Source: Armatimonadota bacterium (GTDB lineage: Bacteria > Armatimonadota > SYMT01). From it: DNA of 64,000 nucleotides. The DNA is taken from assembly GCA_046292385.1 (NCBI GenBank), contig JBKBRF010000004.1, positions 1 to 64,000 of the forward strand. Reading direction: 5' to 3'. The notes beneath the pieces were generated by a model. The model did no database searches, was not told the DNA's origin, and saw nothing but the letters and a program-made list of their open reading frames with translations. A program made the position numbers and the translations under genes. Of the stretch, positions 20,381 through 38,107 are shown piece by piece (the first letter of the stretch is position 1; every line of letters begins with the position of its first letter).

Positions 20381-20989
20381 ATGAAGGGATTGACGGCCAA
20401 GCAGCAGCGAGTGCTCGACGTGATCCGGGGCGCGATGCGGACGTCCGGACAGCCGCCGACGGTTCGAGAGATCGGCCGGGAGATCGGCGTACAGTCGAGT
20501 TGTACCGTTCAGCGCCACCTGGACGCGCTGGAGAAGAAGGGCTTTATCAAGCGGGACCGCTACAAGTACCGCTCGATCGAATTGACCGATTCGCCGATCC
20601 CGCCGTTCACCCGCGCGGTCAACGTGCCGGTGCTGGGCCAGATCGCCGCCGGCCTGCCGATTCTGGCGGAGGAGCAGATCGAGGATACGTTCCCGCTGCC
20701 GATGGACCTGGTCGGGGAGGGAGACGACGTCTTCATGCTGCGCGTCCGCGGGGACAGCATGATCAACGCCGGGATCTTCGACGGCGACCTGGTGGCGATC
20801 CGCCAGCAGAACGTGGCGCACAACGGCGAGATCGTCGCCGCCATGATCGAAGACGAGGCGACCGTGAAGCGGTTCTACAAGGACAAGCAGCGCGTGCGCC
20901 TGGTGGCCGAGAACCCCGACTACGCGCCGATCGAGGCGGATGACGTCCGTATTCTCGGCAAGGTGATCATGAGCGTCCGCCGCTTCTGA
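20381..20989 (+). CDS. lexA: SOS transcriptional repressor LexA
   Basis: GGAGGTG RBS; PPTVREIG HTH; IAAG cleavage site; GDSM and EATVKR catalytic motifs. Confidence 0.97.
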   Translation: MKGLTAKQQRVLDVIRGAMRTSGQPPTVREIGREIGVQSSCTVQRHLDALEKKGFIKRDRYKYRSIELTDSPIPPFTRAVNVPVLGQIAAGLPILAEEQIEDTFPLPMDLVGEGDDVFMLRVRGDSMINAGIFDGDLVAIRQQNVAHNGEIVAAMIEDEATVKRFYKDKQRVRLVAENPDYAPIEADDVRILGKVIMSVRRF

Positions 20990-21513: not shown

Positions 21514-22404
21514 TTGCCGGGCGGTGCTCGGGAGGAGACCGCACCCCGGCGCGGCTCGCTGGCGCGGGTGGCGCGGGCGGGCGCGGTCGCCTTCATCGCG
21601 GCTTACGTCCTCTTCACGGCGCTGCTCTGGTATCTCCAGGAGCAGTTGATCTTTCCGGGCGCCTCCTACCGGGCCGCCGCTCCCAGCCTGCCGGTGGGAG
21701 TGCGCCGCGTCAGCCTTCCGCATACGAGGGGACGCTCGTTTTCCGCCTACTACGCGGAGCCGCTGACGGAAGCCGGGGAGCCCCACCCACAGGCGGAGAG
21801 CGCTCCGCGACTGCTCTACTTCTACGGCAACCGGATGGTCGCCGCGGACGCGCTTCCCACGCTCCAGGCGTTCCAGCGTCTCGGCGCGGCTGTGCTCACG
21901 CCGGACTACGCCGGCTACGGAGAGAGCCCGGGCCGGCCCTCGGAGCAGGGCTGTTACGCCGCGGCCGAATCGGCGTACGCCTGGCTGCGCGCCCAACCGG
22001 GCGGCGAGAGCGCTGACGTCTACGCGAGCGGGTGGTCACTCGGAGGCGCGGTGGCGGCGGAGCTCGCCGTGCGTCACCCCGTGCGGGGCCTGGCGCTCTT
22101 CTCCACCTTTACCAGCATGGAAGAGCTGGCGGCGCGGCAGTACCCGTGGCTGCCCACCGGCATCCTGCTGCGGCACCGCTTCCGCACGGAGCGGAAGCTG
22201 CCGCGCGTGCACTGTCCGGTGCTGATCGGGTACGGAGCCCTCGATCCGGTAGCGCCGCCGTGGATGGGCCGGCGGCTGGCGGAAGTCGCCGGCGGAGAGG
22301 TGCGGCTGCTGGAGGTCGAGGGAGCGGGCCACAACGACTTCTTCGAAGCCGGCGGCGACCGGGTGCTCGCCGCTATGCGCGAGCTGCTGCGGCGCGGCGA
22401 GTGA
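21514..22404 (+). CDS. Membrane-anchored alpha/beta hydrolase (start uncertain)
   Basis: TM segment then QEQLIFP; DYAGYGESPG; GWSLG nucleophile; D in ALDPV; GHND. Confidence 0.85.
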   Translation: MPGGAREETAPRRGSLARVARAGAVAFIAAYVLFTALLWYLQEQLIFPGASYRAAAPSLPVGVRRVSLPHTRGRSFSAYYAEPLTEAGEPHPQAESAPRLLYFYGNRMVAADALPTLQAFQRLGAAVLTPDYAGYGESPGRPSEQGCYAAAESAYAWLRAQPGGESADVYASGWSLGGAVAAELAVRHPVRGLALFSTFTSMEELAARQYPWLPTGILLRHRFRTERKLPRVHCPVLIGYGALDPVAPPWMGRRLAEVAGGEVRLLEVEGAGHNDFFEAGGDRVLAAMRELLRRGE

Positions 22405-23623
22405 GCGGAGGCATCATCCCCGCGCGCTCCCCGTCCTCCGGGCCGAGCGTGCCGTCCAGCGCCCGAAGGAGCTGGTCCGCGTTGCGCCCGGAGTCCGGGT
22501 AGGTGGCGGCCGCCGCGCGGATCGGCTGCTGGACCACCGGATAGAGGCTCTCCGCCAGGCGCATCGCGACCTGTCCCGCCACCGTCCCGGTGTTCGGCAG
22601 GATCACCCCGAACTCCCGGTCTCCGGTCCGCGCCACGATGTCGAGTCGCCGCACGGAGCGGCGGAGCAGCTCGGCCGCCCGCGTCATCTCCTCGTCCCGG
22701 CAGCCCTCGGGCAGGCGCAGCGAGAGCACGGAGACGTACCGCTCGAAGTGGCGAGCACGCTGGATCTCCTCCAGCAGGCGCCGCTCGAACTGCTCGCGGC
22801 AGTAGATGCCGGTCTGGCGGTCGACGATCCCACCTTCGGACGCGCCGCGGCCGCGGTCGCCGCCGCTCTCCTCCGGCAGCCGCTCCCGCATGTGCTTGAG
22901 ACCGTTGCGCAGCACGTAGCCGGTGTAGTTGCAGGAGATCCCGAGGCGGCGGGCAATCTCGCTCTGGTTGAAGCCGTCGTAGAAGAAGTAGGAGAGGACC
23001 TTCCGCTCCAGATCCTTCAGCCGGCCGAGGGCGTTCTCCAGGACGATCCGGTCCTCGATCGGCAGCTCCAGCGTGACGTACTGGCGGCTCTGGAACTTCT
23101 CCGGATCGACTTCCAGGAATTCCTCGCCCTCTTCGGACGGAGTCTCCATGCGGACGATCTGCGCGGCGCGGCGCGCGGCGAGGAGCTCCTCCACGCCTTC
23201 CTCGGTCAGGTTCGCCGCCTCCGCGATCTCTGCGGCGGATGGCGGGCGCTGGAGCCGCTGCTCCAGCTGCGCCGAGATCCGGAGCACCCGGGTGTTCAGC
23301 TCCTGCAGCCACGCCGGCTGCCGGATCAGGTGGCCCCGGTCTCGCAGGTAGTGCCGGATCTGCCCCGCCACCAGGTGGCTGGCGAAAGTGCTGAAGCGCG
23401 CGCCTCGCTCCGGGACGAAGCGGTCGACGGCTCGGATCAGCCCGATGAACCCCTCGCTCTCCAGGTCCTCGAGCGGCTCTTTACCGGCAAACTTCGCGGC
23501 GATCGAGCGGACGAGCGGCCGCATCTCTTCGACGACGGCATCCCGGAACGCCGGGTCTCCCGTGCGCCGGAGCTGGTCCAGCAGCTCCGACGCACGTCGA
23601 TCGCAGTAGGCGCGTTCGCTCAT
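22373..23623 (-). CDS. SigB/SigF-type sigma-70 factor fused to a degenerate C-terminal GGDEF domain
   Basis: Region 2 GLIRAVDRFVPERGARFSTFA...IRHYLRD; region 3 RPPSAAEIA; region 4 NQSEIARRLGIS; then DRQTGIY...RRLDIVARTGDREFGVILP. Confidence 0.88.
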   Translation of the reverse strand: MSERAYCDRRASELLDQLRRTGDPAFRDAVVEEMRPLVRSIAAKFAGKEPLEDLESEGFIGLIRAVDRFVPERGARFSTFASHLVAGQIRHYLRDRGHLIRQPAWLQELNTRVLRISAQLEQRLQRPPSAAEIAEAANLTEEGVEELLAARRAAQIVRMETPSEEGEEFLEVDPEKFQSRQYVTLELPIEDRIVLENALGRLKDLERKVLSYFFYDGFNQSEIARRLGISCNYTGYVLRNGLKHMRERLPEESGGDRGRGASEGGIVDRQTGIYCREQFERRLLEEIQRARHFERYVSVLSLRLPEGCRDEEMTRAAELLRRSVRRLDIVARTGDREFGVILPNTGTVAGQVAMRLAESLYPVVQQPIRAAAATYPDSGRNADQLLRALDGTLGPEDGERAGMMPPLTRRAAAARA

Positions 23624-23637
23624 GGGAGACGCCTCGC

Positions 23638-24855
23638 TTAAGCGCCGATCAGGGAGATCATGTTGAACATCGGGACCATGATCGAGCCGACGATAAAGCC
23701 GACGATGCCGCCGAGGAGGATGATCAGCATCGGCTCGATCAGCGAGGTGAGCGCCTTCACGGCCACTTCCACCTCATTGTCGTAGAAGGTGGAGATCTTG
23801 ATGAGCATCTCGCTCATCCGGCCGGTCTCCTCGCCGATGTCCATCATCTGCGTCACCATCAGCGGGAAGACCCCGCTGGCGGCGAGCGGCGCGCTGATGC
23901 GCTGGCCCTCTCGCACGCTCTGGCGCGCCTCGTCCACGGCGCGGGCAATCACCACGTTGCCGGCGGTCTCCGCCACGATCTCCAGGGCGCGCAGCACCGG
24001 CACGCCGCTATTGACCAGCGTTCCGAAGGTCCGGGAGAAGCGGGAGACCGCCATCTTGAGCACCAGCTCACCGACGACCGGGATCCGGAGCTTCAGCTTG
24101 TCCAGGTTCCAGCGGCCCTGCTCCGTACCGTAATACCACTTGGTTCCGAAGAAGAGACCCGGCGGAATCGCCAGGAGGGTGTACCAGTAGCCGCGGATGA
24201 AGTCGCTCAGCATGAAGAGCATCTGCGTGATCAGCGGCAGCTCGCCGCCCGCTTCCGCGAAGATCTCCTTGAAGGTCGGGAGCACGAAGGCGAACATCGC
24301 GAGTACCATCAGCATCGCGAAGACGAGGACGCAGACCGGGTAGACCATCGCGCCCTTGATCCGGCCGATCACCTCCTGCTCCTTCTCCAGGAAGGTCGCG
24401 AGGCGGTCGAGGATCTGGTCGAGGATACCGCCGACCTCCGCCGCGCGGACCATGCTGACGAACAGCTTGGAGAAGACCTTCGGGTGCCGCGCGAGCGCGT
24501 CGGTGAGGGTGGAGCCGGCCACCACGTCTTTCCGGAGCTCGCCGATGACCGGCTTGAGCACCGGGTCCTTCGCCTGCTGCTCCAGGATGTCGAGGCACTT
24601 GAGGATGTTGATGCCGGCGTTCACCATCGTGGCGAACTGCCGGCTGAACACCACCAGCGAGGCGAGCTTGACCTTTCCGCCGGCCTTCCCGCCGAGGAGA
24701 CCGCCTCCCGCGGCATTCTTGGCCTGGACTACGTCCACGACCGTGAAGTTCAGGCTCTGAAGCTTGCCGAGAACGGCGGACGCGCTCTCGGCGTCGATCG
24801 TCCCCTTGACGACGCGGCCGCTCGGCTCGACGGCTTCATAGGAAAACTGCGGCAT
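23638..24855 (-). CDS. pilC: Type IV pilus / type II secretion inner-membrane platform protein (PilC/GspF)
   Basis: FSRQFATMVNAG, HPKVFSKLFVSMVRAAEVGG, MVYP, GEETG, LIEP. Confidence 0.92.
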   Translation of the reverse strand: MPQFSYEAVEPSGRVVKGTIDAESASAVLGKLQSLNFTVVDVVQAKNAAGGGLLGGKAGGKVKLASLVVFSRQFATMVNAGINILKCLDILEQQAKDPVLKPVIGELRKDVVAGSTLTDALARHPKVFSKLFVSMVRAAEVGGILDQILDRLATFLEKEQEVIGRIKGAMVYPVCVLVFAMLMVLAMFAFVLPTFKEIFAEAGGELPLITQMLFMLSDFIRGYWYTLLAIPPGLFFGTKWYYGTEQGRWNLDKLKLRIPVVGELVLKMAVSRFSRTFGTLVNSGVPVLRALEIVAETAGNVVIARAVDEARQSVREGQRISAPLAASGVFPLMVTQMMDIGEETGRMSEMLIKISTFYDNEVEVAVKALTSLIEPMLIILLGGIVGFIVGSIMVPMFNMISLIGA

Positions 24856-25005: not shown

Positions 25006-25866
25006 TCAGGGGAGAAACGGCAGGTTCTCCCAGCGGAGCGCGACCGGGTGGGACTGGTCGTAGAAGAGGACGCGCAGGCGGCTGCCGGTAATCAACGCGC
25101 GCAGGGGGGCGAGCTCGGTTTCGCGCTCGGCGTCATCCAGCGCCGCCGCCGCCTCGGCGACCTGGTAGAGCCGCCGCGCGAACTCCGCGGCGGTAGCTCC
25201 GGCGCTCTCGCGGCCGACGGTGCGGGCATATGCCTGCTGCGCCGCCGCCGTGTCCCCGGCGAGGCCCAGCGCGATTCCCGCGGAGACATAGGCGGCGCCC
25301 AGCCGTTCCGCTCGCAGCTCCGGCGGGGAATGGCGGGAGAAGAGGCGCGCGGCGACTTCGAAGTGGACCGCCGCCTCGCGGTCCCGGCGCGCCTCCAGCA
25401 GCTCGCGTCCGCGCATCCAGGCGGCGGCGGCGGTCAGCTCGCCCAGGCTCCGGACAGTCGGGTCATACGCCGGCTCTTCCGCCGGTGCGATGCCGCCGAG
25501 CAGCCGCAGGGAGAGGAGGCTGGCGCGGGTCTCCTCGTCGTCCGGAGCCAGCGCTGCCGCCGCCTCCAGCGCGGAGAGCGCTCCCGGGAGATCGCGCAGC
25601 CGGCCCAGCGCGAGGCCGAGCAGCCGGTGGGCGCCCGGAGCCTGCGGATCCCCGGCCAGCACCTGTTCCAGGCACTCCGCGCAGCGCTCCAGCTGCCCGA
25701 GCTGCCAGTAAGCGCGAGCCGGGGAGAGGCGCAGGTCGTCGGCCAGGGCAGGGGAGGGGTGGACTCGGCGCGCCGGCTCTCCCGCGGCGCCTTCGGGAGC
25801 CGCCGGAGCGGCCGGCTCCTCCGCCCTCGGCTGCCGGTCCAGATGTTGCCAGCGTCTCGCGTTCAT
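25006..25866 (-). CDS. Tetratricopeptide-repeat protein
   Basis: AHRLLGLALGRLRDLPGALSALEAAAALAPDD TPR pattern. Confidence 0.7.
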   Translation of the reverse strand: MNARRWQHLDRQPRAEEPAAPAAPEGAAGEPARRVHPSPALADDLRLSPARAYWQLGQLERCAECLEQVLAGDPQAPGAHRLLGLALGRLRDLPGALSALEAAAALAPDDEETRASLLSLRLLGGIAPAEEPAYDPTVRSLGELTAAAAWMRGRELLEARRDREAAVHFEVAARLFSRHSPPELRAERLGAAYVSAGIALGLAGDTAAAQQAYARTVGRESAGATAAEFARRLYQVAEAAAALDDAERETELAPLRALITGSRLRVLFYDQSHPVALRWENLPFLP

Positions 25867-28392: not shown

Positions 28393-28725
28393 ACCAAGTA
28401 ATCATTTTTCGGCAATTCTTAACGATTTCTAAACGACCGGAGCCCGGAGCTCATTGCCAAAAGAAATCGCCGCTATTCGCGGAATTCGGTCCGAACGCTG
28501 CGGTCCAGATTACACATTTCCCCACTGAGGGTGTTACACTCGTACGTGTAGTCGGTGAACCGCAGTCACCTTGAGAGTCTGCTTAAGGTTTCTGGCACTG
28601 CGAATTCCCTCCGCCTCTAGAACCCCGCCGCGCCGCATCGACTGCGCTCCGGCCGTTACGCGCCGTCGGAGAGCAGGTGGAAGTGCGCCGGCCTCTCGAT
28701 TTCAGGAATGTGAGACTTCACGGCA

Positions 28726-29304
28726 ATGAGCGAACAGACAACGACAACGGCAGCCCACGCTGGAGAACTGCATCGTGGTCCCGGCGAGGAGTTCTGGCTC
28801 GAGGGTGATGCCGACGTCAAGCCGCTGGTGATCAGACAGGGAGTGGTGGCCTACCGGCGCGGCAGCGTGGCGATCGGTCTGATGGGCCCCGGCGAAGTCG
28901 TGCTGCCGATCCCGGGCACGCCCAAGCTTGGGCCGGCGGCGGCCGACCTCGTGGCGGTCACCGAAGCGACCGTAGGCGAGTACGAGGGCGATCTCGAATC
29001 GAACAAGTACCAGGCCTGTCTGGATAGCGCTCGCGCCGTGGTGGAAGGGGCGGACCGGCTCGGGAATATGTCGCTCCCGCAGCGCCTCGCCGCCCTGCTG
29101 CTCGACATCACCGACATGACCGGGCAGCCGGTAGTCGGGTGCCGGCAGGACATTCTCGCGATGGCCGCGGCCGCACGGCGCGAGACGGTGGCGACGATCC
29201 TCTCCGGCTGGCGCGACGAGGACTGGATCCAGACCCGCTATCGCCGCTGCAAGGTGATGGATCGCGATGCCCTGATCAAGATCCGGGACCGCCGCCCCGA
29301 GTAG
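28726..29304 (+). CDS. Crp/Fnr family transcriptional regulator with divergent effector domain
   Basis: VIRQGVV...GLMGPGEV; LPQRLAALLL; HTH RQDILAMAAAARRETVATIL. Confidence 0.8.
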   Translation: MSEQTTTTAAHAGELHRGPGEEFWLEGDADVKPLVIRQGVVAYRRGSVAIGLMGPGEVVLPIPGTPKLGPAAADLVAVTEATVGEYEGDLESNKYQACLDSARAVVEGADRLGNMSLPQRLAALLLDITDMTGQPVVGCRQDILAMAAAARRETVATILSGWRDEDWIQTRYRRCKVMDRDALIKIRDRRPE

Positions 29305-29361
29305 GTCGGTCCACCGGCTCTCTCCCCAGGGTGCCGCCGGCACCCTGGGGAGCCCTTTCCG

Positions 29362-29967
29362 CTACCGTGCGGTCCCGCTCCGCTCCAGGTAGGCGCGCAC
29401 TTCTTCGAATTGCTCCGGACTGATTGCGTCGTGCTTGCGCAGCGCCGTCAGCAGCTCCGGAAGCGTAAAGACCGAGTGCAGCGTGAGTCCGTGCTCGCGC
29501 AGTGCCTCCGCCCCGCCCTGCTGGCGGTCGATCAGTACCACCACGTCCCGCACCACGAGCCCCGCGGCGGTGAGCGGCTCGATCAGCTCCAGCTTGGCGC
29601 CGCCCGTGGTGATCACGTCATCGATCACCACCGCCACCTGGCCCGGCCGGATCTCTCCCTCTACCCGCTGCCCCGTGCCGTACGCCTTCGCTTCCTTGCG
29701 CGGGTAGATGGCCGGGATTCCGGAAGCGAGGGAGGCGCTGACTGCCAGCGGCAGCCCCGCGTACGGCAGCCCCGCCAGGCAGTCGCACTCCACGGTCCGC
29801 GCCCGGGCCGCCAGCGCTTCTCCTGCCGCCCGCAGCGCGGCGGGGTGCGACACGAGGCCGCGCAGGTCCACGTAGACCGGCGACTTCTGTCCGGACTTCA
29901 GGGTGAACTCTCCGAACTTCACGCCCCCGATCCGGAATAGCTCCAGGGCAAACGCTTCGATCTCCAT
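29362..29967 (-). CDS. pyrE: Orotate phosphoribosyltransferase
   Basis: KFGEFTLKSGQKSPVYVDLR, RKEAKAYG, VIDDVITTG, LIDRQQG. Confidence 0.95.
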   Translation of the reverse strand: MEIEAFALELFRIGGVKFGEFTLKSGQKSPVYVDLRGLVSHPAALRAAGEALAARARTVECDCLAGLPYAGLPLAVSASLASGIPAIYPRKEAKAYGTGQRVEGEIRPGQVAVVIDDVITTGGAKLELIEPLTAAGLVVRDVVVLIDRQQGGAEALREHGLTLHSVFTLPELLTALRKHDAISPEQFEEVRAYLERSGTAR

Positions 29968-30095
29968 CACAGGTCCTCTCTCCGGCGGCCGGCGCCGCGT
30001 GCGCAGCGGTCGGAGTAAGGATAGCCTGCCGGTCACCCGAAGTGCCTCGCGAGGAGCGCCGGTGAGCGGGTGGGCAAGATCCAGAGTAGCAGACG

Positions 30096-30182: not shown

Positions 30183-30602
30183 CCGGCAGTCTACCCGTCG
30201 CACCCCAAGGGCTAAACCGCTCGCAAAGAAAAGGGTTTCACTCCTAGCGCTCGGGCTCCAGGCGAGCGGTGCCGCCGGTGCCCGGGTCCGGGAGAGCGGG
30301 CTGCGGCTCCAGGGGGAACCAACCGTCGCAAAAGAAACTCCGCACCGCGCGCGTGACTTCGCTCGTCATGTAGAACAGGAATCCGACTCCCGGGCTTCTA
30401 TATTGGTTAGAAAGGCGGACGGGGGCGCGCTGCTGGAGGCGCTGCTCACCCGCTCCGCCGTATACATCGGATATTGCGGCTCGCATGGCGGCGCCCTCCA
30501 GCGGGAAGCCAGCCGTCTGGCGGCCGCTGGACCGCACGATTCCCCACCACCACCTTCCGCGCGGATGCTCAGCAGGTGACGGCGAGCGGGAGATACGCCT
30601 CT

Positions 30603-33600
30603 ATGTCAAACAGGACTCCTTCAGTATTCGATACCACGTTCCGCACCGTCGGCGTGGTGCTGTCTGTCTCCGCCGGTGCCGTATTCGTGGCACACCCCGG
30701 CATCTCCGCTCCCGCGAAGCCCGCCCGAAAGCCGGTGCCGGGTGCCGCCGGGGTGCGTCCCCGAATGCCGATCGCGCCCCCGGCGGCCCCGGACGCGGGC
30801 GATCGCCAGACGGCGAAGCCGGCGGTCGACCTCTACAAGCTCCCCGCACCCACCGACGAGTTCATGCCGCTCAGCCAGGTCAAGCCGGGCATGAAGGGGT
30901 ACGGGCTAACCGTGTTCCGCGGCACCAAGATCGAGCGGTTCGGCGTGGAAGTGCTCGGCGTGATGGAGAAGTCGTACATGGGGCGCCCGCTGGTGCTGGT
31001 GCGGCTCTCCGGCGGGCCGATCAGCGAGCGCGGCGCCTTCCTGATCCAGGGCATGAGCGGCAGCCCGATCTACCTCGATGGGAAGCTGCTCGGCGCCTTC
31101 TCCATGGGGAACGCCTGGCCCAAGGATCCGATCGGTATGGTGACGCCGATCGATGACATGATGGAAGCGCTCGATCCGAAGCTTTCGCAGATCCCCGCGG
31201 GCGGCATCGCGTTCGATCCCGCCGCGCCGGTGGCGAACGTGGCGAGCACGGCGGTGCCGGAGCTGTTCCGCACCCCGCTGAGCGTCGCCTCGCCGGCCGC
31301 GACCGGACGCACCTTCCGGCCGCTCTCGCTGCCGGTGACGGTGAGCGGTCTCTCCGGCCGCAACCTGGAGGCGATGTCCGAGGTACTGCGCCCGTTCAAC
31401 CTGAACGTGATGCAGGGGGCCGGCAGCGTCTCCGAGCCGATCAAGACGGAGCTCGGCCCCGGATCGGCGGTCGGGGTGGCGCTGGTGCGCGGCGACATCG
31501 AGATGACCGCCTTCGGCACCGTGACCCACCGCAAGGGGAACGAGCTGGTCGCCTTCGGCCACCCGTTCTTCCAGATCGGCGCGGTCCAGTTCCCGATGAC
31601 GACGGCCTGGGTGCACGAGGTCTTCTCCGGGTTCGACGTGTCGCACAAGATCTCGTCGGCCGGAGAGGTGATCGGCACGATCATCCAGGACCGGCCCTTC
31701 TCGATCGCCGGGAAGGTGGGGCCCGCCCCCAAGATGATTCCGGTCCGCTACACGGTGAAGGACCAGACCACCGGCCGGGGCCGCACCTACCAGTGTGAAG
31801 CGATCAACCACCCGCTGCTGGTGGGCCGCTTCTTGCCGGTGGCGGTGAACCAGGGTCTCTTCGAGGTGCGCCCGGTTCCGGGTGAGGCGGTCGCGCAGGT
31901 GAAGCTGCGGGTGGAGACGGACGGCGCCGGGACGATCACCCGGGAGAACATCTTCTTCGATCCGGCCGCGATCGACATCACCGCGGTGAGCGAGCTGATG
32001 GAGCTGATGAACGTGCTCAGCGCCAACTCGTTCCAGAAGGTGCCGATCAAGAGCGTCGACGTGGACGTGGTCTTCGAGGAGAAGCGGCCCACCGCGACGG
32101 TGGAGCGGATCTTCCTGCCGCAGGACAAGTTCGAGCCGGGCGACGAGATCGAGGTCGGCGTAGTGCTGCGGCCGTTCCGCAAGGACCCGGTCCTCACCAA
32201 GACGAAGATCCGGGTTCCGGAATCGGCCGCCAACGGCCGCGCGCTGCTGATGGTTCACGGCGGCTCCACCCGGGTCAATCTCAGCTCCCTCTCTTCCGGC
32301 TCCGCCGGTCCGGGCGGGGTGCCGCAGACCGGCGCGCCGGCCGATGCCACCCTGGGCCAGGTGCTGAAGCGGTTCCAGGAGCGGGAGCGCAACGACCAGC
32401 TCATCACGCGGCTCGTCTTCCCCAGCACCTCCGTGGCGATCCAGGGCTCCAAGCTCTCGCAGCTCCCGTCGCCGCTGGTGGAGGTGATGCGAAGCTCCAA
32501 GAGCACCGGCTTCCGCTTCGAGCGGGACGATGCCAAGGCGGTGACCGATTCCGAGCTGATCCTCTCCGGGCTTCAGGTGCTGGCGATCGACGTCCAGCGG
32601 CCGGACCGCCAGGAGAAGCCGCAGCCCGGCGGCGCCTCCAGCGGCGCCGGTCGCCCCAGCACCACCGGCTCCGCCACGCCGATGCAGCTCAACTCCGGCT
32701 TCGGGAATGACGACGAGGAATTCGCAGCCGGCCGCGTGCGCTTCAGCGTGGACGGCCTGCCGCGGGTGGTTCGCCTGACCCCCGAAGAGGACGAGCCGTC
32801 CCGCCTGAAGGGCGACGAAAAGGCGCCGCAGAAGGAAGAAAAGAAGCCGGCCCCGGCGAAGAACGGCGCCAAGCAGGATCCGAAGGCCGGTGCCAAGCCG
32901 GACGACGCCAAGGCGGCGGACAAGCCGGCGGAGAAGGCGGACGACAAGCCGAACCAGGACCCGCTGGTCGGGCGCCAGGCGAAGCTCTGGAAGCAGAGCA
33001 CGGCCGCCGAGTTCGCCGCCGGAACCTTCAAGAGCACCGGCGTGGCGACGACCGGCGACGTGCGGCTCACCCCCAGCCTCAAGCTGGCCCACGAGTCTCC
33101 GGAGCAGTTCGTGTGGAGCGTGGCCGGCGTCGGAGGCGCGGTCTATGCCGGCACGGGTCACGGCGGCCAGGTGCTGCGCCTGGACCAGAACGGCACGGCC
33201 TCCGTCTTCTTCCGCACCGGCGAGCTGGAAGTCCACTCCCTGGGGAAGGACGCGAAGGGGAACCTCTACGTCGGCACCAGCCCCCGCGGCAAGGTCTTCC
33301 GCGTCTCCCCGGACGGTAAGGGGGAAGAGCTGCTCGATCTCTCGGCCGGCTCCTCGGACGACTCGGCTCGGTTCGTGGTCTCGCTCGCCGTGGCGGCGGA
33401 CGGCACCGTCTACGCCGGCACCGGTCCGGAGGCCGCGATCTACCGCGTGAAGCCCGGCGCGAAGGGCGAGCTGCTCTGCAAGCTCCCCGACCAGACGGTG
33501 ATGAGCCTTCACCTGGGCTCGGACGGCGCTCTCTACGCCGGCACGGCGGAGGACGGCGCGATCTACCGCGTCCGTCTCACCGACGCGAGCGCGCAGCCGG

Positions 33601-35108
33601 AGATCCTGTACGACAGCGACGCCAGCGCGATCACCGGGTTGGCACTGGCCCAGGACGGGACGCTCTACGCGGCGGCTTCGCCGAACGGCACGGTCTACAA
33701 GATCACCCCGGACCGCAAGCATTCGGTCCACTTCGCGCACAAGGGCAAGGGCGCGCTCTACGGTCTGCTGGTAGACGGCGGCGGCAACCTGATCACCGCG
33801 ACCGGCGACTCGGTCCTGCGGATCGAGCGGGACGGCACCGCGACCTATCTCGCCGACCCGAAGCGGGCGCAGTTCACCTGTGTCGCGTGGGACGAGGACG
33901 GCCGCATCATCGCCGGTAGCGCCAACGTGGGCAGCATCTACCGCCTGGCGCTCAGCGCCGAGGGCAGCTTCGAGTCGACCGTCCACGATGCCGGCATGCC
34001 GGCCCGCTGGGGCCGGGTGCGCTACTCCGGCATGCTGCCGGACGGCGCGAAGATGCAGGTGGAGACCCGCAGCGGCAACACCCGGGAGCCGGACCGCTCC
34101 TGGAGCGCCTGGCAGCCGCTGGCGTCGCGGGACAGCGGCACCTACGTGGTGAGCCCGGAGGCGCGGTTCCTGCAGTACCGCGTCGTCTTCGAGAGCGCCG
34201 CCGGCTCGCCGTCGCTGCGGGAGATCCAGTTCTCCTACCTGCCGCGGAACCAGGCGCCGAAGGTGACGCTGGCGGCCCCCGCCGCCGGGCAGATCATCCG
34301 CGGCGGCTTCCCGGTCAAGTGGTCCGCCGTCGATCCGGATAAGGACACCCTCACCTACGAGGTCTCCTTCAGCGCGGACCAGGGCAAGACCTGGAAGCCG
34401 GTGGGCGAGACGACTGCCGCGGCCCCGGCCGGCGGTACGCCCGCTCCGCCCTCCGATGACCGCCCCACCCGGGCGGAGGCGCAGGAAGCGCTGAAGCGGT
34501 TCCGCGAGCAGCTCGACAGCGACCAGAGCCTCACTCCGGCCCAGCGGGACGAGAGCTTCAATAAGGCGAAGCAGGTGGTGGAGCAGTATCTGGACGAGAA
34601 TCCGGAGCCGGAGAAGGGCGAGAGCAAGCCGACCCCCGCTCCGGCGGCGGCGGCCTCGCGTCCGGCCGGCACCACCCGCCAGGCGACCCTGACGTGGGAT
34701 ACCAAGTCGGTGCCCGACGGCGTCTATCTGGTCCGCGTCGTAGCCTCGGACAAGGCGAGCAACCCGGGCGAGCCGCTGGCCGACGTGGCGCTCTCCGAGC
34801 CGTTCATCGTCAGCAACACGCCGCCGCAGCTCTTCGTCTTCGAGCGGGGGATCAGCGTGAACGCGCAGAAGGAAGCGGGCGTGGTCGGCTTCGCCTCCGG
34901 GCGTGTCAGCCTCCAGGGCGCCCAGTACCGGGTCGACGGCGGCGACTGGACCGCCATCGAGCCGGACGACGGCATCTGGGACAGCGCCTCGGAGCACTTC
35001 CGATTCACCGTTCCGGCAGCCGCCGCGGGCGAGTGGACGGTGGAGGTGAAGCTGGTCGACGTGGCCGGCAACTCCAGCACCACCAAGGTGAAGTACAAGG
35101 TCCCGTAA
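30603..35108 (+). CDS. Large secreted protein: SpoIVB-like S55 peptidase domain, beta-propeller repeats and Ig/FN3-like C-terminus
   Basis: PLSQVKPGMKGYGLTVFRG, QGMSGSPIYLDGKLLGA, VAFGHPF; repeated DGTVYAGT blades; ARFLQYR. Confidence 0.85.
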   Translation: MSNRTPSVFDTTFRTVGVVLSVSAGAVFVAHPGISAPAKPARKPVPGAAGVRPRMPIAPPAAPDAGDRQTAKPAVDLYKLPAPTDEFMPLSQVKPGMKGYGLTVFRGTKIERFGVEVLGVMEKSYMGRPLVLVRLSGGPISERGAFLIQGMSGSPIYLDGKLLGAFSMGNAWPKDPIGMVTPIDDMMEALDPKLSQIPAGGIAFDPAAPVANVASTAVPELFRTPLSVASPAATGRTFRPLSLPVTVSGLSGRNLEAMSEVLRPFNLNVMQGAGSVSEPIKTELGPGSAVGVALVRGDIEMTAFGTVTHRKGNELVAFGHPFFQIGAVQFPMTTAWVHEVFSGFDVSHKISSAGEVIGTIIQDRPFSIAGKVGPAPKMIPVRYTVKDQTTGRGRTYQCEAINHPLLVGRFLPVAVNQGLFEVRPVPGEAVAQVKLRVETDGAGTITRENIFFDPAAIDITAVSELMELMNVLSANSFQKVPIKSVDVDVVFEEKRPTATVERIFLPQDKFEPGDEIEVGVVLRPFRKDPVLTKTKIRVPESAANGRALLMVHGGSTRVNLSSLSSGSAGPGGVPQTGAPADATLGQVLKRFQERERNDQLITRLVFPSTSVAIQGSKLSQLPSPLVEVMRSSKSTGFRFERDDAKAVTDSELILSGLQVLAIDVQRPDRQEKPQPGGASSGAGRPSTTGSATPMQLNSGFGNDDEEFAAGRVRFSVDGLPRVVRLTPEEDEPSRLKGDEKAPQKEEKKPAPAKNGAKQDPKAGAKPDDAKAADKPAEKADDKPNQDPLVGRQAKLWKQSTAAEFAAGTFKSTGVATTGDVRLTPSLKLAHESPEQFVWSVAGVGGAVYAGTGHGGQVLRLDQNGTASVFFRTGELEVHSLGKDAKGNLYVGTSPRGKVFRVSPDGKGEELLDLSAGSSDDSARFVVSLAVAADGTVYAGTGPEAAIYRVKPGAKGELLCKLPDQTVMSLHLGSDGALYAGTAEDGAIYRVRLTDASAQPEILYDSDASAITGLALAQDGTLYAAASPNGTVYKITPDRKHSVHFAHKGKGALYGLLVDGGGNLITATGDSVLRIERDGTATYLADPKRAQFTCVAWDEDGRIIAGSANVGSIYRLALSAEGSFESTVHDAGMPARWGRVRYSGMLPDGAKMQVETRSGNTREPDRSWSAWQPLASRDSGTYVVSPEARFLQYRVVFESAAGSPSLREIQFSYLPRNQAPKVTLAAPAAGQIIRGGFPVKWSAVDPDKDTLTYEVSFSADQGKTWKPVGETTAAAPAGGTPAPPSDDRPTRAEAQEALKRFREQLDSDQSLTPAQRDESFNKAKQVVEQYLDENPEPEKGESKPTPAPAAAASRPAGTTRQATLTWDTKSVPDGVYLVRVVASDKASNPGEPLADVALSEPFIVSNTPPQLFVFERGISVNAQKEAGVVGFASGRVSLQGAQYRVDGGDWTAIEPDDGIWDSASEHFRFTVPAAAAGEWTVEVKLVDVAGNSSTTKVKYKVP

Positions 35109-35263: not shown

Positions 35264-36334
35264 ATGCTGCAGTCGATCCTGCCGCTGCTCTCCTGCCCCG
35301 CCCGCTCCGTGCCGGCCCGTCCGTGCGGCGGCACGCTGCTGGTTCAGGACTCCCCCGCGCTGCCGCTCCGATTCGATCCCGCGCTCCGCGATGACCTGCT
35401 GGAGGGACTGCTCCGCTGCGTCTCCTGCGGCAAGGACTACCCGGTGCTCTCCGGCGTGGCGGTGCTCCATCCGGATCCGGACGACTATCTCCGCCGCTAT
35501 GGGCGCGCGGTGCTCCGGGATCTCGACCGGCACGGCTCAGCCCCCCCGGAAGTCCGGCGGTGGCTGGTGCGGCGGACCGGCCGAGAGGCGGAGCAGGACG
35601 ACTACGGCGCCGACTTCCGCTACTCGCAGCAATTCGAAGGTCCGTACGCGGTCGCCGGCGCGATGCTGGAGCAGCCGGAGGCGCTGTATGGGCCTTACGC
35701 GGAGTGGCTGCGGCAGATCGAGGGGCAGGGCCCCTACGACGTGCTGGCGGGCTGGGGCAGGGAGGCGGCCCGCCGCGGGTTCCTGCTGGACGCGGGCTGC
35801 GGGGGTGGGGGACTGCTGGTGCGGGCGGCAGAGGCGTACCAGGCGGCGTTCGGGGTCGATCTCTCCTTCCTCGCCATCCTGCTTGCCCGGCGCGCGCTGC
35901 TCCACCGGCCGGAGGCGGAGCGCTCCTACCTGCTGGTCACCCGGCGCGGCGAAGAGCGCGAGCGACCCCTCTCGGTTCCGCGCCTGCGGAACACCGAGTT
36001 GGTGGTCGGCGACGCGGCGGCGGTCCCGTTCGCACCCGGCCTGTTCGACACCGTTTGCAGCTGCAACGTGATCGACATCGCCGGCATCGAGGGTCCGCTC
36101 TCGGAGGCGGCGCGGGTGCTGGGAAAGGGCGGCTCGCTGCTGCTGTCGGACCCGTTCTTCTTCCGGGACGGCGAGGCACCGCCCCGAGACCCGAAGGAGG
36201 CGCTGCATCGGGCTCTGCGGGCGCGGGGGCTGCAGATACAGCGCGAGCGAGACGCGGTACCATGGGCATGGGCTACCTACGACCGGCACTGGCACGTCTA
36301 CTTCAACTACTGTGTCGCGGCGGTCAAGGAATAG
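35264..36334 (+). CDS. Class I SAM-dependent methyltransferase with N-terminal Trm112-like zinc ribbon
   Basis: LLSCP...CGGTL...LRCVSCGKDYPVLSGV; LLDAGCGGG; GVDLS; VGDAAAVPF. Confidence 0.8.
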   Translation: MLQSILPLLSCPARSVPARPCGGTLLVQDSPALPLRFDPALRDDLLEGLLRCVSCGKDYPVLSGVAVLHPDPDDYLRRYGRAVLRDLDRHGSAPPEVRRWLVRRTGREAEQDDYGADFRYSQQFEGPYAVAGAMLEQPEALYGPYAEWLRQIEGQGPYDVLAGWGREAARRGFLLDAGCGGGGLLVRAAEAYQAAFGVDLSFLAILLARRALLHRPEAERSYLLVTRRGEERERPLSVPRLRNTELVVGDAAAVPFAPGLFDTVCSCNVIDIAGIEGPLSEAARVLGKGGSLLLSDPFFFRDGEAPPRDPKEALHRALRARGLQIQRERDAVPWAWATYDRHWHVYFNYCVAAVKE

Positions 36335-36385
36335 ACATCCACCCGGACGCGCCGGTAAAGAGTCCGCGGATGGGGAGGAGGCCGG

Positions 36386-37411
36386 ATGAGCGGATCGACA
36401 CGACTGATAGCCGTAGTGGGCGGGATCGCCGCGGGGGCGGTCGCCGGAACGGTGGCCCTCTTGCTGCTGATGCCGGCGGTACGGCCATCGGGGGACGGCA
36501 CCCGGCCCGCGCCGCCGGCAGTAACCCCTCCGGCAGCCAATGCTTCGGGGGTGCCCGCCGTCGGATCGGAGCCGGTCCAGGCGAATGGCCCCGCCGCACT
36601 GGCTCCGGCGGCGTCTGCCGTCGATCCCGCGGCCCTTCAGCGGCTCCTGGAGAGCTCCGCGGAGGAGCTCCCCGGGAAGGTGGCGATCCACGTCCGGATT
36701 GACGGCGGCCCGGAAGCCGGGGTGCTGGCGAACGAGCAGATGCGGGCCGCCAGCGTGATCAAGCTGCCGCTCCTGGCGGTACTCTTCGCCGCCTGGGAGA
36801 GCGGGCTGGTGAAGCGGACCTCCGCGGACCTGGAGCGCGCCCGCAAAATGATCACCCAGAGCGCCAATCCGGAGGCGGACGCGCTGATCCGCCGCCTGGG
36901 AATGGACAGGGTGAACGACTGGCTGGATAACCACGGCTACACCGGCACGGAGCTCCGCCACCTGCTGCTGGGTGAGCGTCCCCGGGGCGAGAACGTGGTG
37001 AGCGCTGCCGAGATGACCCGGATGCTGCTCGAGATCGGCCGGGGAGAGCTGGTGAGCCCGGCCGCCAGTGCGGAGATGCGACAGATTCTGCAGGCGCAGA
37101 CGCGGCGTACCCGCATTCCGGCCGGTCTTCCGGAGGAGGCAGTGGTCGGCAACAAGACCGGCACGCTGAATGGGGTGGTGAACGACGTGGCGTTGGTGGA
37201 GGCGCCGGGACTGCCGCGCTACGCCATCGCCGTCCTGAACGAAGGCGGGAGCGACGTGGCGACCTCCCGGCGGATCGCCGAGCTGAGCCGGAAGGTCTAC
37301 CAGCTGCTGCGGAGCAGCGCGGCTCCGGAGTCCGCTTCCGGGAATGGGCCGTCGTCCGCCGCTCCGGAGAGCGGCTCCGGCACCGCGCCGCCCGCCGGCA
37401 ATCGGCCCTGA
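36386..37411 (+). CDS. Membrane-anchored class A beta-lactamase-like serine hydrolase
   Basis: SxxK (ASVIK), SxN (SAN), KTG motifs; N-terminal TM and Pro/Ala linker. Confidence 0.85.
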   Translation: MSGSTRLIAVVGGIAAGAVAGTVALLLLMPAVRPSGDGTRPAPPAVTPPAANASGVPAVGSEPVQANGPAALAPAASAVDPAALQRLLESSAEELPGKVAIHVRIDGGPEAGVLANEQMRAASVIKLPLLAVLFAAWESGLVKRTSADLERARKMITQSANPEADALIRRLGMDRVNDWLDNHGYTGTELRHLLLGERPRGENVVSAAEMTRMLLEIGRGELVSPAASAEMRQILQAQTRRTRIPAGLPEEAVVGNKTGTLNGVVNDVALVEAPGLPRYAIAVLNEGGSDVATSRRIAELSRKVYQLLRSSAAPESASGNGPSSAAPESGSGTAPPAGNRP

Positions 37412-37513
37412 TGTCCGCCAACCGATCGAGCTACTCGCGCATTCCAGAAGTATCACCGCCGGGATCGGCCGCTCCGGCTCCGGAGCGGTCCCGGTGAGCC
37501 AGGAGGGCGCGAG

Positions 37514-38107
37514 ATGAAGACGTTGAATCTGGACCGCGAGACGGCGTCGGGCGGCACACCATTGGCGAACGCGCCGGCGATGAAGAGAGGCTTTGAGATG
37601 AACGGCAGGCTGGTCGCGGTGGGACTCGCCCTCGTCCTGGTGGCGGGCGGCGGCTTCGCGCTCTGGCGCTCGGTGGAGGCCCAGCGCCCGAAAGGCTCCG
37701 ACGCGGAGCAGATCCGGGCGATGCTGGCCGAGGGGGAGCGCGCCACGGAGCGCCTCGACGCAGCCGGACTCGGGCGCTTCATCTCGGACGATTACCGGGA
37801 CAACCTCGGCCTCTCCGACACGAGCGTGAAGTACCAGATCCGCCGCTACTTCCGGGAGCACGACGCGATCGAGGTGGAGATCCCGGAGCAGTCGATCGAG
37901 GTGAACGTCTCGCCGAACAGCGACACCGGCTCGGTCTCGTTCCTGGCGCGGGTGGGAGTGGCTACGGACGCGAAGACCGCGACGTACGACCTGCCGATGA
38001 CGCTGCAGGTCAAGAAGGAGCCGGTGCACTACTACTGGCTCTTCCCCGGCGAAGAGTGGAAGGTGACCTCCGCCGAGGGGTACGGAGCCCTGGAAGGCTA
38101 CCAGTAG
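37514..38107 (+). CDS. Membrane-anchored NTF2-like hypothetical protein (alternative start 37598)
   Basis: AGGAGG RBS; TM segment; DAEQIRAML...ISDDYRD...WKVTSAE NTF2-like pattern. Confidence 0.65.
   Translation: MKTLNLDRETASGGTPLANAPAMKRGFEMNGRLVAVGLALVLVAGGGFALWRSVEAQRPKGSDAEQIRAMLAEGERATERLDAAGLGRFISDDYRDNLGLSDTSVKYQIRRYFREHDAIEVEIPEQSIEVNVSPNSDTGSVSFLARVGVATDAKTATYDLPMTLQVKKEPVHYYWLFPGEEWKVTSAEGYGALEGYQ

Follow-up and report, generated by a model that had tools for sequence, protein, structure and literature searches.

A candidate c-di-GMP-responsive sigma factor carrying its own degenerate GGDEF domain in Armatimonadota

Introduction

Can a sigma factor sense a second messenger through a domain of its own? 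The question is raised by a gene at positions 22373..23623 (minus strand) of a 64,000-nucleotide (nt) stretch of DNA from an Armatimonadota bacterium (positions 1 to 64,000 of contig JBKBRF010000004.1, assembly GCA_046292385.1), referred to here in its full length as the window. The gene encodes a sigma factor fused to a degenerate GGDEF domain, and an initial annotation made from the letters alone had proposed that the fused domain is a receptor for c-di-GMP (cyclic diguanosine monophosphate). We followed up this proposal with profile, structure-prediction, conservation and gene-neighborhood analyses. From the sequence evidence, we consider it moderately probable that the protein is a sigma factor which senses c-di-GMP through its own receptor-type GGDEF domain, in which catalysis has been lost and the whole inhibitory site (I-site) has been kept. 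Papers are cited by PMC number and are represented by excerpts.

A sigma factor and a GGDEF domain in one polypeptide

The gene and its domains are as follows:
22373..23623, minus strand: sigma-GGDEF fusion gene, an unbroken open reading frame (ORF) with an ATG start, 416 amino acids (aa), with Pfam sigma regions 2, 3 and 4 and GGDEF
23333..23533, minus strand: Sigma70_r2, residues 31-97 (PF04542, E 8.7e-16)
23111..23302, minus strand: Sigma70_r3, residues 108-171 (PF04539, E 2.2e-11)
22886..23032, minus strand: Sigma70_r4, residues 198-246 (PF04545, E 4.6e-9; PF08281, 3.1e-7)
22838..22870, minus strand: flexible Gly/Arg-rich linker, residues 252-262 (predicted local distance difference test score, pLDDT, below 50 in the full-length AlphaFold2 model)
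22439..22828, minus strand: degenerate GGDEF domain and receptor-type candidate, residues 266-395 (PF00990, predicted folds and profile matches)

PF04542, PF04539 and PF04545 occur in order and each above its cut-off, which places the protein in the sigma-70 family and bears out the assignment of its first ~255 residues to sigma regions 2, 3 and 4. The region 2 columns D53, G58, G61, L62, T79, A81, H91, R94 and D95 are invariant in the fusion family. Searched against solved sigma factors, the family profile matches PDB 1l0o_C best (3.2e-50), followed by Staphylococcus aureus SigB (8x6g_H, 1.6e-49). Among NCBIfam models, NF005644 (SigF) ranks top (152.8 bits, 1.3e-44; cut-off 261) and TIGR02980 (SigB/SigF/SigG) second (147.4 bits, 5.2e-43; cut-off 234.35), while TIGR02479 (FliA/WhiG, sigma-28) gives 95.4 bits with a cut-off of 189.6. 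The label "SigB/SigF-type" in the initial annotation thus names the best-matching subfamilies, but neither of their cut-offs is reached. Because every subfamily score lies below its cut-off, the protein is, as judged by its sequence, a group-3-like alternative sigma-70-family factor outside any curated subfamily.

The linker leads into the C-terminal domain, where PF00990 matches residues 267-371 (E 1e-10, 42.1 bits with a cut-off of 23.8, profile positions 3-117 of 161). The short Gly/Arg linker had been correctly read, and is disordered in the model. The motif DRQTGIY does open a GGDEF domain, though at about 22822 rather than 22830. Linker length differs among family members, many of which have a longer, helix-prone linker before the GGDEF domain. 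In the protein set the window protein is recovered as itself (P0001, 100%), and its homologs share the same architecture.

The C-terminal domain is predicted to adopt the GGDEF fold

A model of the C-terminal domain (161 residues, from an alignment of 66 sequences from related loci) reached a pLDDT of 88.6, with a core above 95, and a predicted template modeling score (pTM) of 0.81. Foldseek returned 97 PDB matches at E ≤ 0.001, with GGDEF domains in all rows listed and 4rnh as the best match (E 2.5e-10, template modeling score (TM) 0.69). VIA-align gave Z scores of 15.8-19.2 over the 50 matches listed, the top ones all being GGDEF domains; PleD (2v0n_A) aligned over 131 residues with a Z score of 18.5 and an rmsd of 2.1 Å.

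Profile searches agree with the models. The C-terminal domain profile matched 53 distinct solved GGDEF sequences at E ≤ 0.01, covering the whole domain, including 6d9m (2.2e-32), 3ign (3.6e-30), WspR (3bre, 4.1e-24), PleD (1w25, 2e-23) and FimX (3hva, 1.9e-17). In these alignments RxxD falls on RxxD, five residues ahead of GG[DE]EF. The window domain alone matched DgcR (6zxm, 3.8e-6) and the c-di-GMP-bound domain 3ign (6e-5) with HMMER. Both model and profiles thus assign the C-terminus the GGDEF fold that had been read by eye.

A full-length AlphaFold2 model, built from 150 homologs, has a mean pLDDT of 86 and a pTM of only 0.47, so the relative placement of the domains is not predicted. A fold search with this model returned sigma-factor matches only (TM 0.2-0.27), because the sigma domains dominate it.

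Catalytic residues are lost and the I-site is retained

The residues that distinguish an enzyme from a receptor are located as follows:
22640..22651, minus strand: RxxD of the I-site, R325-R-L-D328, aligned on the RxxD of solved cyclases
22757..22759, minus strand: R289, at the position of PleD R313, the I-site Arg contributed by a neighboring GGDEF domain
22559..22561, minus strand: R355, at the position of PleD R390, the third residue of the primary I-site
22610..22624, minus strand: degenerate active site (A-site) GDREF, replacing GG[DE]EF and aligned on the GGEEF of solved cyclases

The coordinates of RRLD and GDREF given in the initial annotation can be read directly in the DNA. The motif order in the window is RRLD-IVART-GDREF, with RxxD five residues ahead of the degenerate GGDEF motif. 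SLRLPEG sits where cyclases hold their metal- and GTP (guanosine triphosphate)-binding stretch, and HMMER alignments show ~10 residues to be missing here; the replacement of the metal-binding strand had also been noted. At position 303, that of the first metal-binding Asp, the window protein has Arg.

We then asked how these positions behave across the family, using 180 candidates of 370-520 residues, 177 of which align along the sigma part as well as the C-terminal domain (P0197, P0224 and P0231 were dropped). GG[DE]EF occurs in 0/177 members, with all five motif positions highly variable, and Asp is found at position 303 in 8/177. The five most conserved of the 133 domain positions are D328 (171/177), R325 (169), R289 (169), P376 (168) and R355 (166). 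RxxD is present in 165/177 members, as expected from the initial reading, and R289, R325, D328 and R355 occur together in 152/177.

The I-site of PleD consists of RxxD (R359, D362) and R390 together with R313 of the adjacent GGDEF domain, and c-di-GMP dimers bound at the I-site cross-link two GGDEF domains (PMC7288161). R289 lies 49 positions before the RxxD Asp in the alignment with 3ign, equal to the R313-D362 spacing of PleD. R355 pairs with an Arg 28 residues past the RxxD Asp in 3ign, again equal to the D362-R390 spacing. From these spacings we infer that R289 and R355 correspond to PleD R313 and R390.

With no GG[DE]EF, no metal-binding Asp and, in the clade of the window protein, a ~10-residue deletion in the substrate-binding stretch, the C-terminal domain is by its sequence not an active diguanylate cyclase. 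An I-site that appears to be under strong purifying selection, combined with family-wide loss of the catalytic residues, is the pattern expected of a receptor-type GGDEF domain.

The related sigma factors P0178, P0184, P0190, P0194, P0195, P0198, P0204, P0206 and P0218 carry C-terminal extensions of 150-250 residues that have no Pfam match. Those of P0178 and P0204 align with the domain profile at hhalign probabilities of 97.7% and 85.7%, with R-x-x-D at the aligned place. By this comparison the two extensions are distant relatives of the same dead GGDEF domain, and the fusion family would therefore be wider than Pfam architectures show.

The fusion is widespread in the phylum

A protein search returned 424 relatives at E ≤ 0.001 among 8000 candidates, and precomputed Pfam annotation shows sigma domains together with PF00990 in 109 of the 120 best protein clusters; the few source names were Armatimonadota, Fimbriimonadaceae and, twice, Actinomycetota. 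An exhaustive search of representatives gave 178 proteins at E ≤ 1e-30, and a scan of one genome per species gave 593 relatives. The 80 best loci come from metagenome-assembled genomes (MAGs) labelled Fimbriimonadales, Chthonomonadales, Armatimonadales, Capsulimonadaceae, Abditibacteriales and others. The nearest relatives, L001 and L002 (63% and 57% identity, both with pilC upstream), are from MAGs labelled Actinomycetes/Actinomycetota; these are probably mislabelled, since all other relatives are Armatimonadota.

We searched 201 genomes of the phylum with a completeness of at least 90%. The full-length profile matched 145 of them at E ≤ 1e-70. In 131/201 (hand count) the match spans the sigma part as well as the GGDEF part, nearly always in single copy. 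The remaining 14 have shorter matches, and 11 of these belong to one family with sigma-only ORFs of ~290 aa. Sigma-only relatives at L081-L084 (genomes G100, G077, G136 and G109) have no GGDEF domain and no adjacent pilC, and tblastn detected no split-off GGDEF gene for those of family f32. The sigma-only relatives are either paralogs, which is probable, or a lineage that lost the domain, and have no bearing on the origin of the fusion.

Contigs from independent root/soil metagenomes bridge the sigma/GGDEF junction (X2, 22664-22937, one difference; X3, 22688-22936) and also the pilC/sigma junction (X2, 23504-23697; X3, 23357-23697). An assembly or gene-calling artefact is excluded by these, and the fusion extends well beyond the assembly in which it was first noticed. 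A metatranscriptome contig, X20, matches 22621-22844, within the GGDEF-like domain, with one difference, which weakly suggests natural transcription of a near-identical gene. The rest of the fusion gene had no RNA cover in that run, which bears on neither expression level nor silence.

The fusion gene is linked to pilC

Upstream of the fusion gene lie:
23638..24855, minus strand: pilC, type IV pilus platform protein with two T2SSF domains (3.2e-62), directly upstream
23624..23637, minus strand: 14-nt gap between pilC (stop TAA 23638-23640) and the sigma gene (ATG 23621-23623)
25006..25866, minus strand: tetratricopeptide repeat (TPR) gene, its TPR family matches mostly below cut-offs, separated from pilC by 150 nt

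The pilC product also matches the NF052607 PilC model at 3.7e-125, under its cut-off. The 14-nt spacing in the initial annotation was read directly in the DNA. The sole terminator-like site nearby is a weak consensus match inside pilC. The two genes are probably co-transcribed, with the TPR gene probably the first of the transcription unit in this genome; it was not found beside the fusion in the other 80 loci. The 3' end of the fusion gene is overlapped by a convergent alpha/beta-hydrolase gene, and further neighbors encode a glyoxalase-fold protein and LexA. No anti-sigma-like gene is found among these immediate neighbors, as had been stated; a genome-wide search for RsiG was not made.

The fusion is present in 70/80 related loci, two of the remaining ten being truncated where their contigs end. 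Sixty-one fusion loci have at least 1400 nt of upstream DNA and are informative for linkage. The link to pilC recurs: it lies directly upstream on the same strand in 34/61, 0.9-2 kb away on the same strand in 2/61, and divergent at 1.4 kb in 3/61. Four more loci with shorter flanks have an adjacent pilC fragment. The most complete arrangement is that of L035, which reads Secretin (pilQ)-PilB (MshEN)-PilT-PilC-sigma with a prepilin-type gene downstream; L006 has a PilT-like ATPase-PilC-sigma, and L001 and L066 have PilC-sigma. The fusion gene is thus the last gene of what is probably a type IV pilus transcription unit, TPR-pilC-sigma in the window and pilQ-pilB-pilT-pilC-sigma in a relative.

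In the host genome, a pilM...pilB-pilT cluster is found on contig C3, which has no T2SSF gene, and the window's pilC has no ATPase gene beside it. It appears, by inference, that pilC stayed with the sigma gene rather than with the pilus machine.

The host genome encodes c-di-GMP enzymes and other sigma systems

The host genome (7.04 Mb, 98.45% complete, 91 contigs, a metagenome-type assembly) encodes 10 full-length GGDEF domains and 8 HD-GYP-type domains, and therefore makes and degrades c-di-GMP; no EAL domain was found in it. It also has sixteen full-length group-3-like sigma genes (E 4.5e-71 to 4.3e-27 with the FliA/WhiG model), an unusually large set. An RsbW-like kinase domain (C1:35842-36216) stands directly before one sigma gene (C1:36362-37018), a classical kinase-sigma arrangement which the fusion gene does not share; RsbW-type kinase domains occur elsewhere in the genome.

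A FliA/WhiG-family sigma is encoded at C61:23781-24458 (minus strand; TIGR02479, 240.7 bits with a cut-off of 189.6). Because the genome gave no match to FlhA, this is, by sequence, a flagella-less sigma-28. A sigma of this family is found above cut-off in 69/101 phylum genomes.

Promoter searches near pil genes

Synechocystis SigF drives the pilin gene pilA1 (PMC2532724), and we searched for the cyanobacterial SigF-like motif [TG]AGGC-N14-16-GGTA[AG] from the same source. Within 400 nt upstream of 40 prepilin-like genes there was one match (preceding a short pilin gene on C24), with 150 matches genome-wide. The 786 kb of related loci contain 9 matches, none beside pil genes. These counts are not above chance and do not support a SigF-like promoter for the fusion sigma.

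The sigma-28/WhiG consensus TAAA-N14-16-GCCGATAA (PMC8325347) was searched in the same sequences. The related loci contain 6 perfect sites as opposed to ~0.1 expected, an estimate from base composition with no shuffle control. Three lie ~100 nt before the fusion gene (L018:1844, L019:691 and L021:5901, two of the three being close relatives), and two just before pilC (L060:4541 and L062:5). In the host genome the one perfect site (C26:71634) precedes a gene for a GGDEF + HD-GYP protein, and a one-mismatch site (C3:142992) precedes pilM; the 12 one-mismatch sites genome-wide equal the base-composition expectation, which is arithmetic with no shuffle control. We did not adopt sigma-28 promoters as the specificity of the fusion sigma: since the genome and 69/101 phylum genomes have a separate FliA/WhiG-family sigma, such promoters near pil genes are better ascribed to that factor. 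The sites suggest a Rubrobacter-like cascade, in which a flagella-less sigma-28 drives pilus and c-di-GMP genes and, in some lineages, the fusion gene.

Other genes in the window and host genome

The window has lexA at 20384-20989 (plus strand; LexA_DNA_bind and Peptidase_S24), 1.4 kb downstream of the sigma gene. A 1544-aa ORF at 30474-35108 (plus strand) has weak beta-propeller and immunoglobulin (Ig)-like matches (SGL, Reg_prop, Big_13) and probably encodes a large surface protein. ORFs 28702-29343, 29362-30036 and 35537-38029 have no Pfam match. The host genome has ~39-40 genes with prepilin-type N-termini, most of them one family of 230-290 aa with a near-identical hydrophobic leader, and a few short pilins, such as two in tandem on C24. 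It also encodes 8 PilB-like ATPases and 9 T2SSF proteins.

Discussion

How might such a protein work? In the mechanism we propose, c-di-GMP, produced by the GGDEF cyclases of the genome and cleared by its HD-GYP enzymes, would bind the I-site as an intercalated dimer. As in PleD and WspR, the bound dimer would cross-link the domain, via R289 with the equivalent domain of another molecule, or else with the body of the sigma factor. The cross-link would alter the amount of sigma that joins core RNA polymerase, and transcription of the regulon would then track the c-di-GMP level with no separate anti-sigma factor. R289 is informative here: its counterpart serves cyclases only in cross-linking to a neighboring domain, which points to ligand-driven dimerization or to locking onto another surface. 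We rate c-di-GMP binding by the C-terminal domain as likely, and control of sigma activity by that binding as having a little better than an even chance. By analogy with the immobilization of cyclase domains and with RsiG-WhiG, we slightly favor the view that high c-di-GMP is inhibitory. The genes under its control probably have to do with pili or surface behavior, a guess from gene linkage.

Several observations weigh against this proposal. At least one of the four I-site residues is missing in 25/177 family members, and RxxD itself in 12/177. The equivalence of R289 and R355 to PleD R313 and R390 passes through spacing in the 3ign alignment and the numbering of a review. The full-length AlphaFold2 model (pTM 0.47) does not confidently place the GGDEF domain relative to the sigma domains, and because of this nothing structural shows the domain acting on sigma. 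One family has related sigma factors of ~281 aa, 35-38% identical, with no GGDEF domain, so a sigma factor of this kind can function alone. The locus holds no pilC in 22/61 informative cases, mostly Chthonomonadales with unrelated neighbors. Neither promoter type we searched for could be attributed to the fusion sigma, and the hint of transcription comes from a single contig that may be carried-over DNA.

The domain could instead act with no ligand, as a dimerization or docking surface (for an active cyclase GGDEF domain or a pilus-machine protein), or as an autoinhibitory, anti-sigma-like extension that a partner releases, with c-di-GMP taking no direct part. GGDEF domains dimerize in their normal function, the extracytoplasmic function (ECF) groups include sigma factors controlled by a fused C-terminal extension, and both the longer, helix-prone linker of many family members and the absence of a fixed interdomain arrangement in the AlphaFold2 model would suit such a role. 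However, it leaves unexplained why the four c-di-GMP-contacting positions are among the five most conserved of 133, while the rest of the former active site has drifted to noise, and we regard it as unlikely. A different ligand is less probable again: the domain might bind GTP at the degenerate A-site, or guanosine tetra- or pentaphosphate ((p)ppGpp), and so signal energy or stringent status. Some degenerate GGDEF domains are known to bind GTP, among them ones that regulate a neighboring EAL domain, and the structure matches include PDB 9g85 and 9g86, by their titles PleD with c-di-GMP and (p)ppGpp. Yet the GTP- and metal-binding stretch is not conserved in the family and is ~10 residues shorter in the window protein, Asp at position 303 is confined to 8/177 members and GG[DE]EF to none, which makes this reading improbable.

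That the fusion is an artefact of assembly or gene calling, or the domain a decaying remnant, might be suspected from a metagenome-type assembly of 91 contigs and from the relatives that have no such domain. This is refuted by the single unbroken ORF, the independent contigs across the sigma/GGDEF junction, the full-length form in 131/201 genomes, the domain model's core pLDDT above 95 and the retention of specific residues at 32-36% overall identity. Sensing of c-di-GMP through the I-site is the reading we prefer, and it can be compared with systems already described.

Degenerate GGDEF domains as receptors have precedents. PelD of Pseudomonas reportedly binds c-di-GMP at the I-site of such a domain, and the histidine kinase SgmT of Myxococcus is said to carry one as its c-di-GMP receptor. 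In PopA of Caulobacter the GGDEF domain is catalytically dead, its A-site is degenerate, and c-di-GMP is read at the retained RxxD (PMC12564702). The fusion protein resembles all three in its dead GGDEF domain, degenerate A-site and retained RxxD, and binding by it is predicted; both its RxxD spacing and its retention of R355 (166/177) and R289 (169/177) are those of an I-site receptor. It differs in its output, which is a sigma factor, in contrast to the receiver domains of PopA, the membrane/GAF exopolysaccharide module of PelD and the histidine kinase of SgmT. With PleD, WspR and DgcR it shares the fold and the four I-site positions, and the cross-linking mechanism proposed above is borrowed from them; unlike them it has no GG[DE]EF and no metal-binding Asp, and its domain is partnered with a sigma factor instead of a receiver domain.

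At the level of the sigma factor, the closest parallel is the (RsiG)2-(c-di-GMP)2-WhiG switch of Actinomycetota, in which c-di-GMP-bound RsiG, an anti-sigma factor, captures WhiG (PMC8325347, PMC7005675). In Rubrobacter, c-di-GMP acts through RsiG-WhiG on a regulon that includes type IV pilus genes (PMC8325347). Both systems have a type IV pilus connection and c-di-GMP at the sigma level, the latter being proposed for the fusion. However, RsiG is a separate coiled-coil anti-sigma factor, whereas the fusion has a putative GGDEF I-site in the same polypeptide and no adjacent anti-sigma gene. Nor is the fusion sigma a WhiG/FliA member (TIGR02479, 95.4 compared with 189.6); the true FliA/WhiG sigma is encoded separately, on C61. 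It is closer to the group-3 factors SigB/SigF/SigG and cyanobacterial SigF, with which it shares the r2-r3-r4 set and the best profile matches, and the action of Synechocystis SigF on pilA1 parallels its pilus linkage (PMC2532724). From these it is set apart by an extra 160-residue C-terminal domain and by having no adjacent RsbW/SpoIIAB-type kinase; matches to a SigF-like promoter did not exceed chance.

According to the excerpts of PMC8325347, no sigma/anti-sigma complex other than RsiG-WhiG is known to be a target of c-di-GMP, and those of PMC12871210 make the same statement for sigma-28-family members. No published description of a sigma factor fused to a GGDEF domain was found in the full-text literature searched, which leaves subscription-only papers and database annotations outside; the statement in the initial annotation that no characterized example was known therefore holds within that literature. 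The novelty lies in a new and conserved combination of known parts, as a sigma factor and an I-site receptor domain are both textbook elements.

Whether these proteins are the first sigma-factor class in which the factor itself binds c-di-GMP is, in our judgment, evenly balanced. In such a class the c-di-GMP dimer would cross-link two sigma factors or lock the domain onto the sigma body, thereby switching access to RNA polymerase, and pilus or surface transcription throughout the phylum would be set by the messenger with no anti-sigma factor. If this is true, the path from second messenger to promoter choice would be shortened to one polypeptide, and c-di-GMP signaling would gain a new effector class. 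One protein, core RNA polymerase and ligand would make a simple in vitro system, and the fusion would be a candidate part for synthetic c-di-GMP-responsive transcription. It would also provide an initial look at how genes are regulated in a phylum of which very few members have been cultured.

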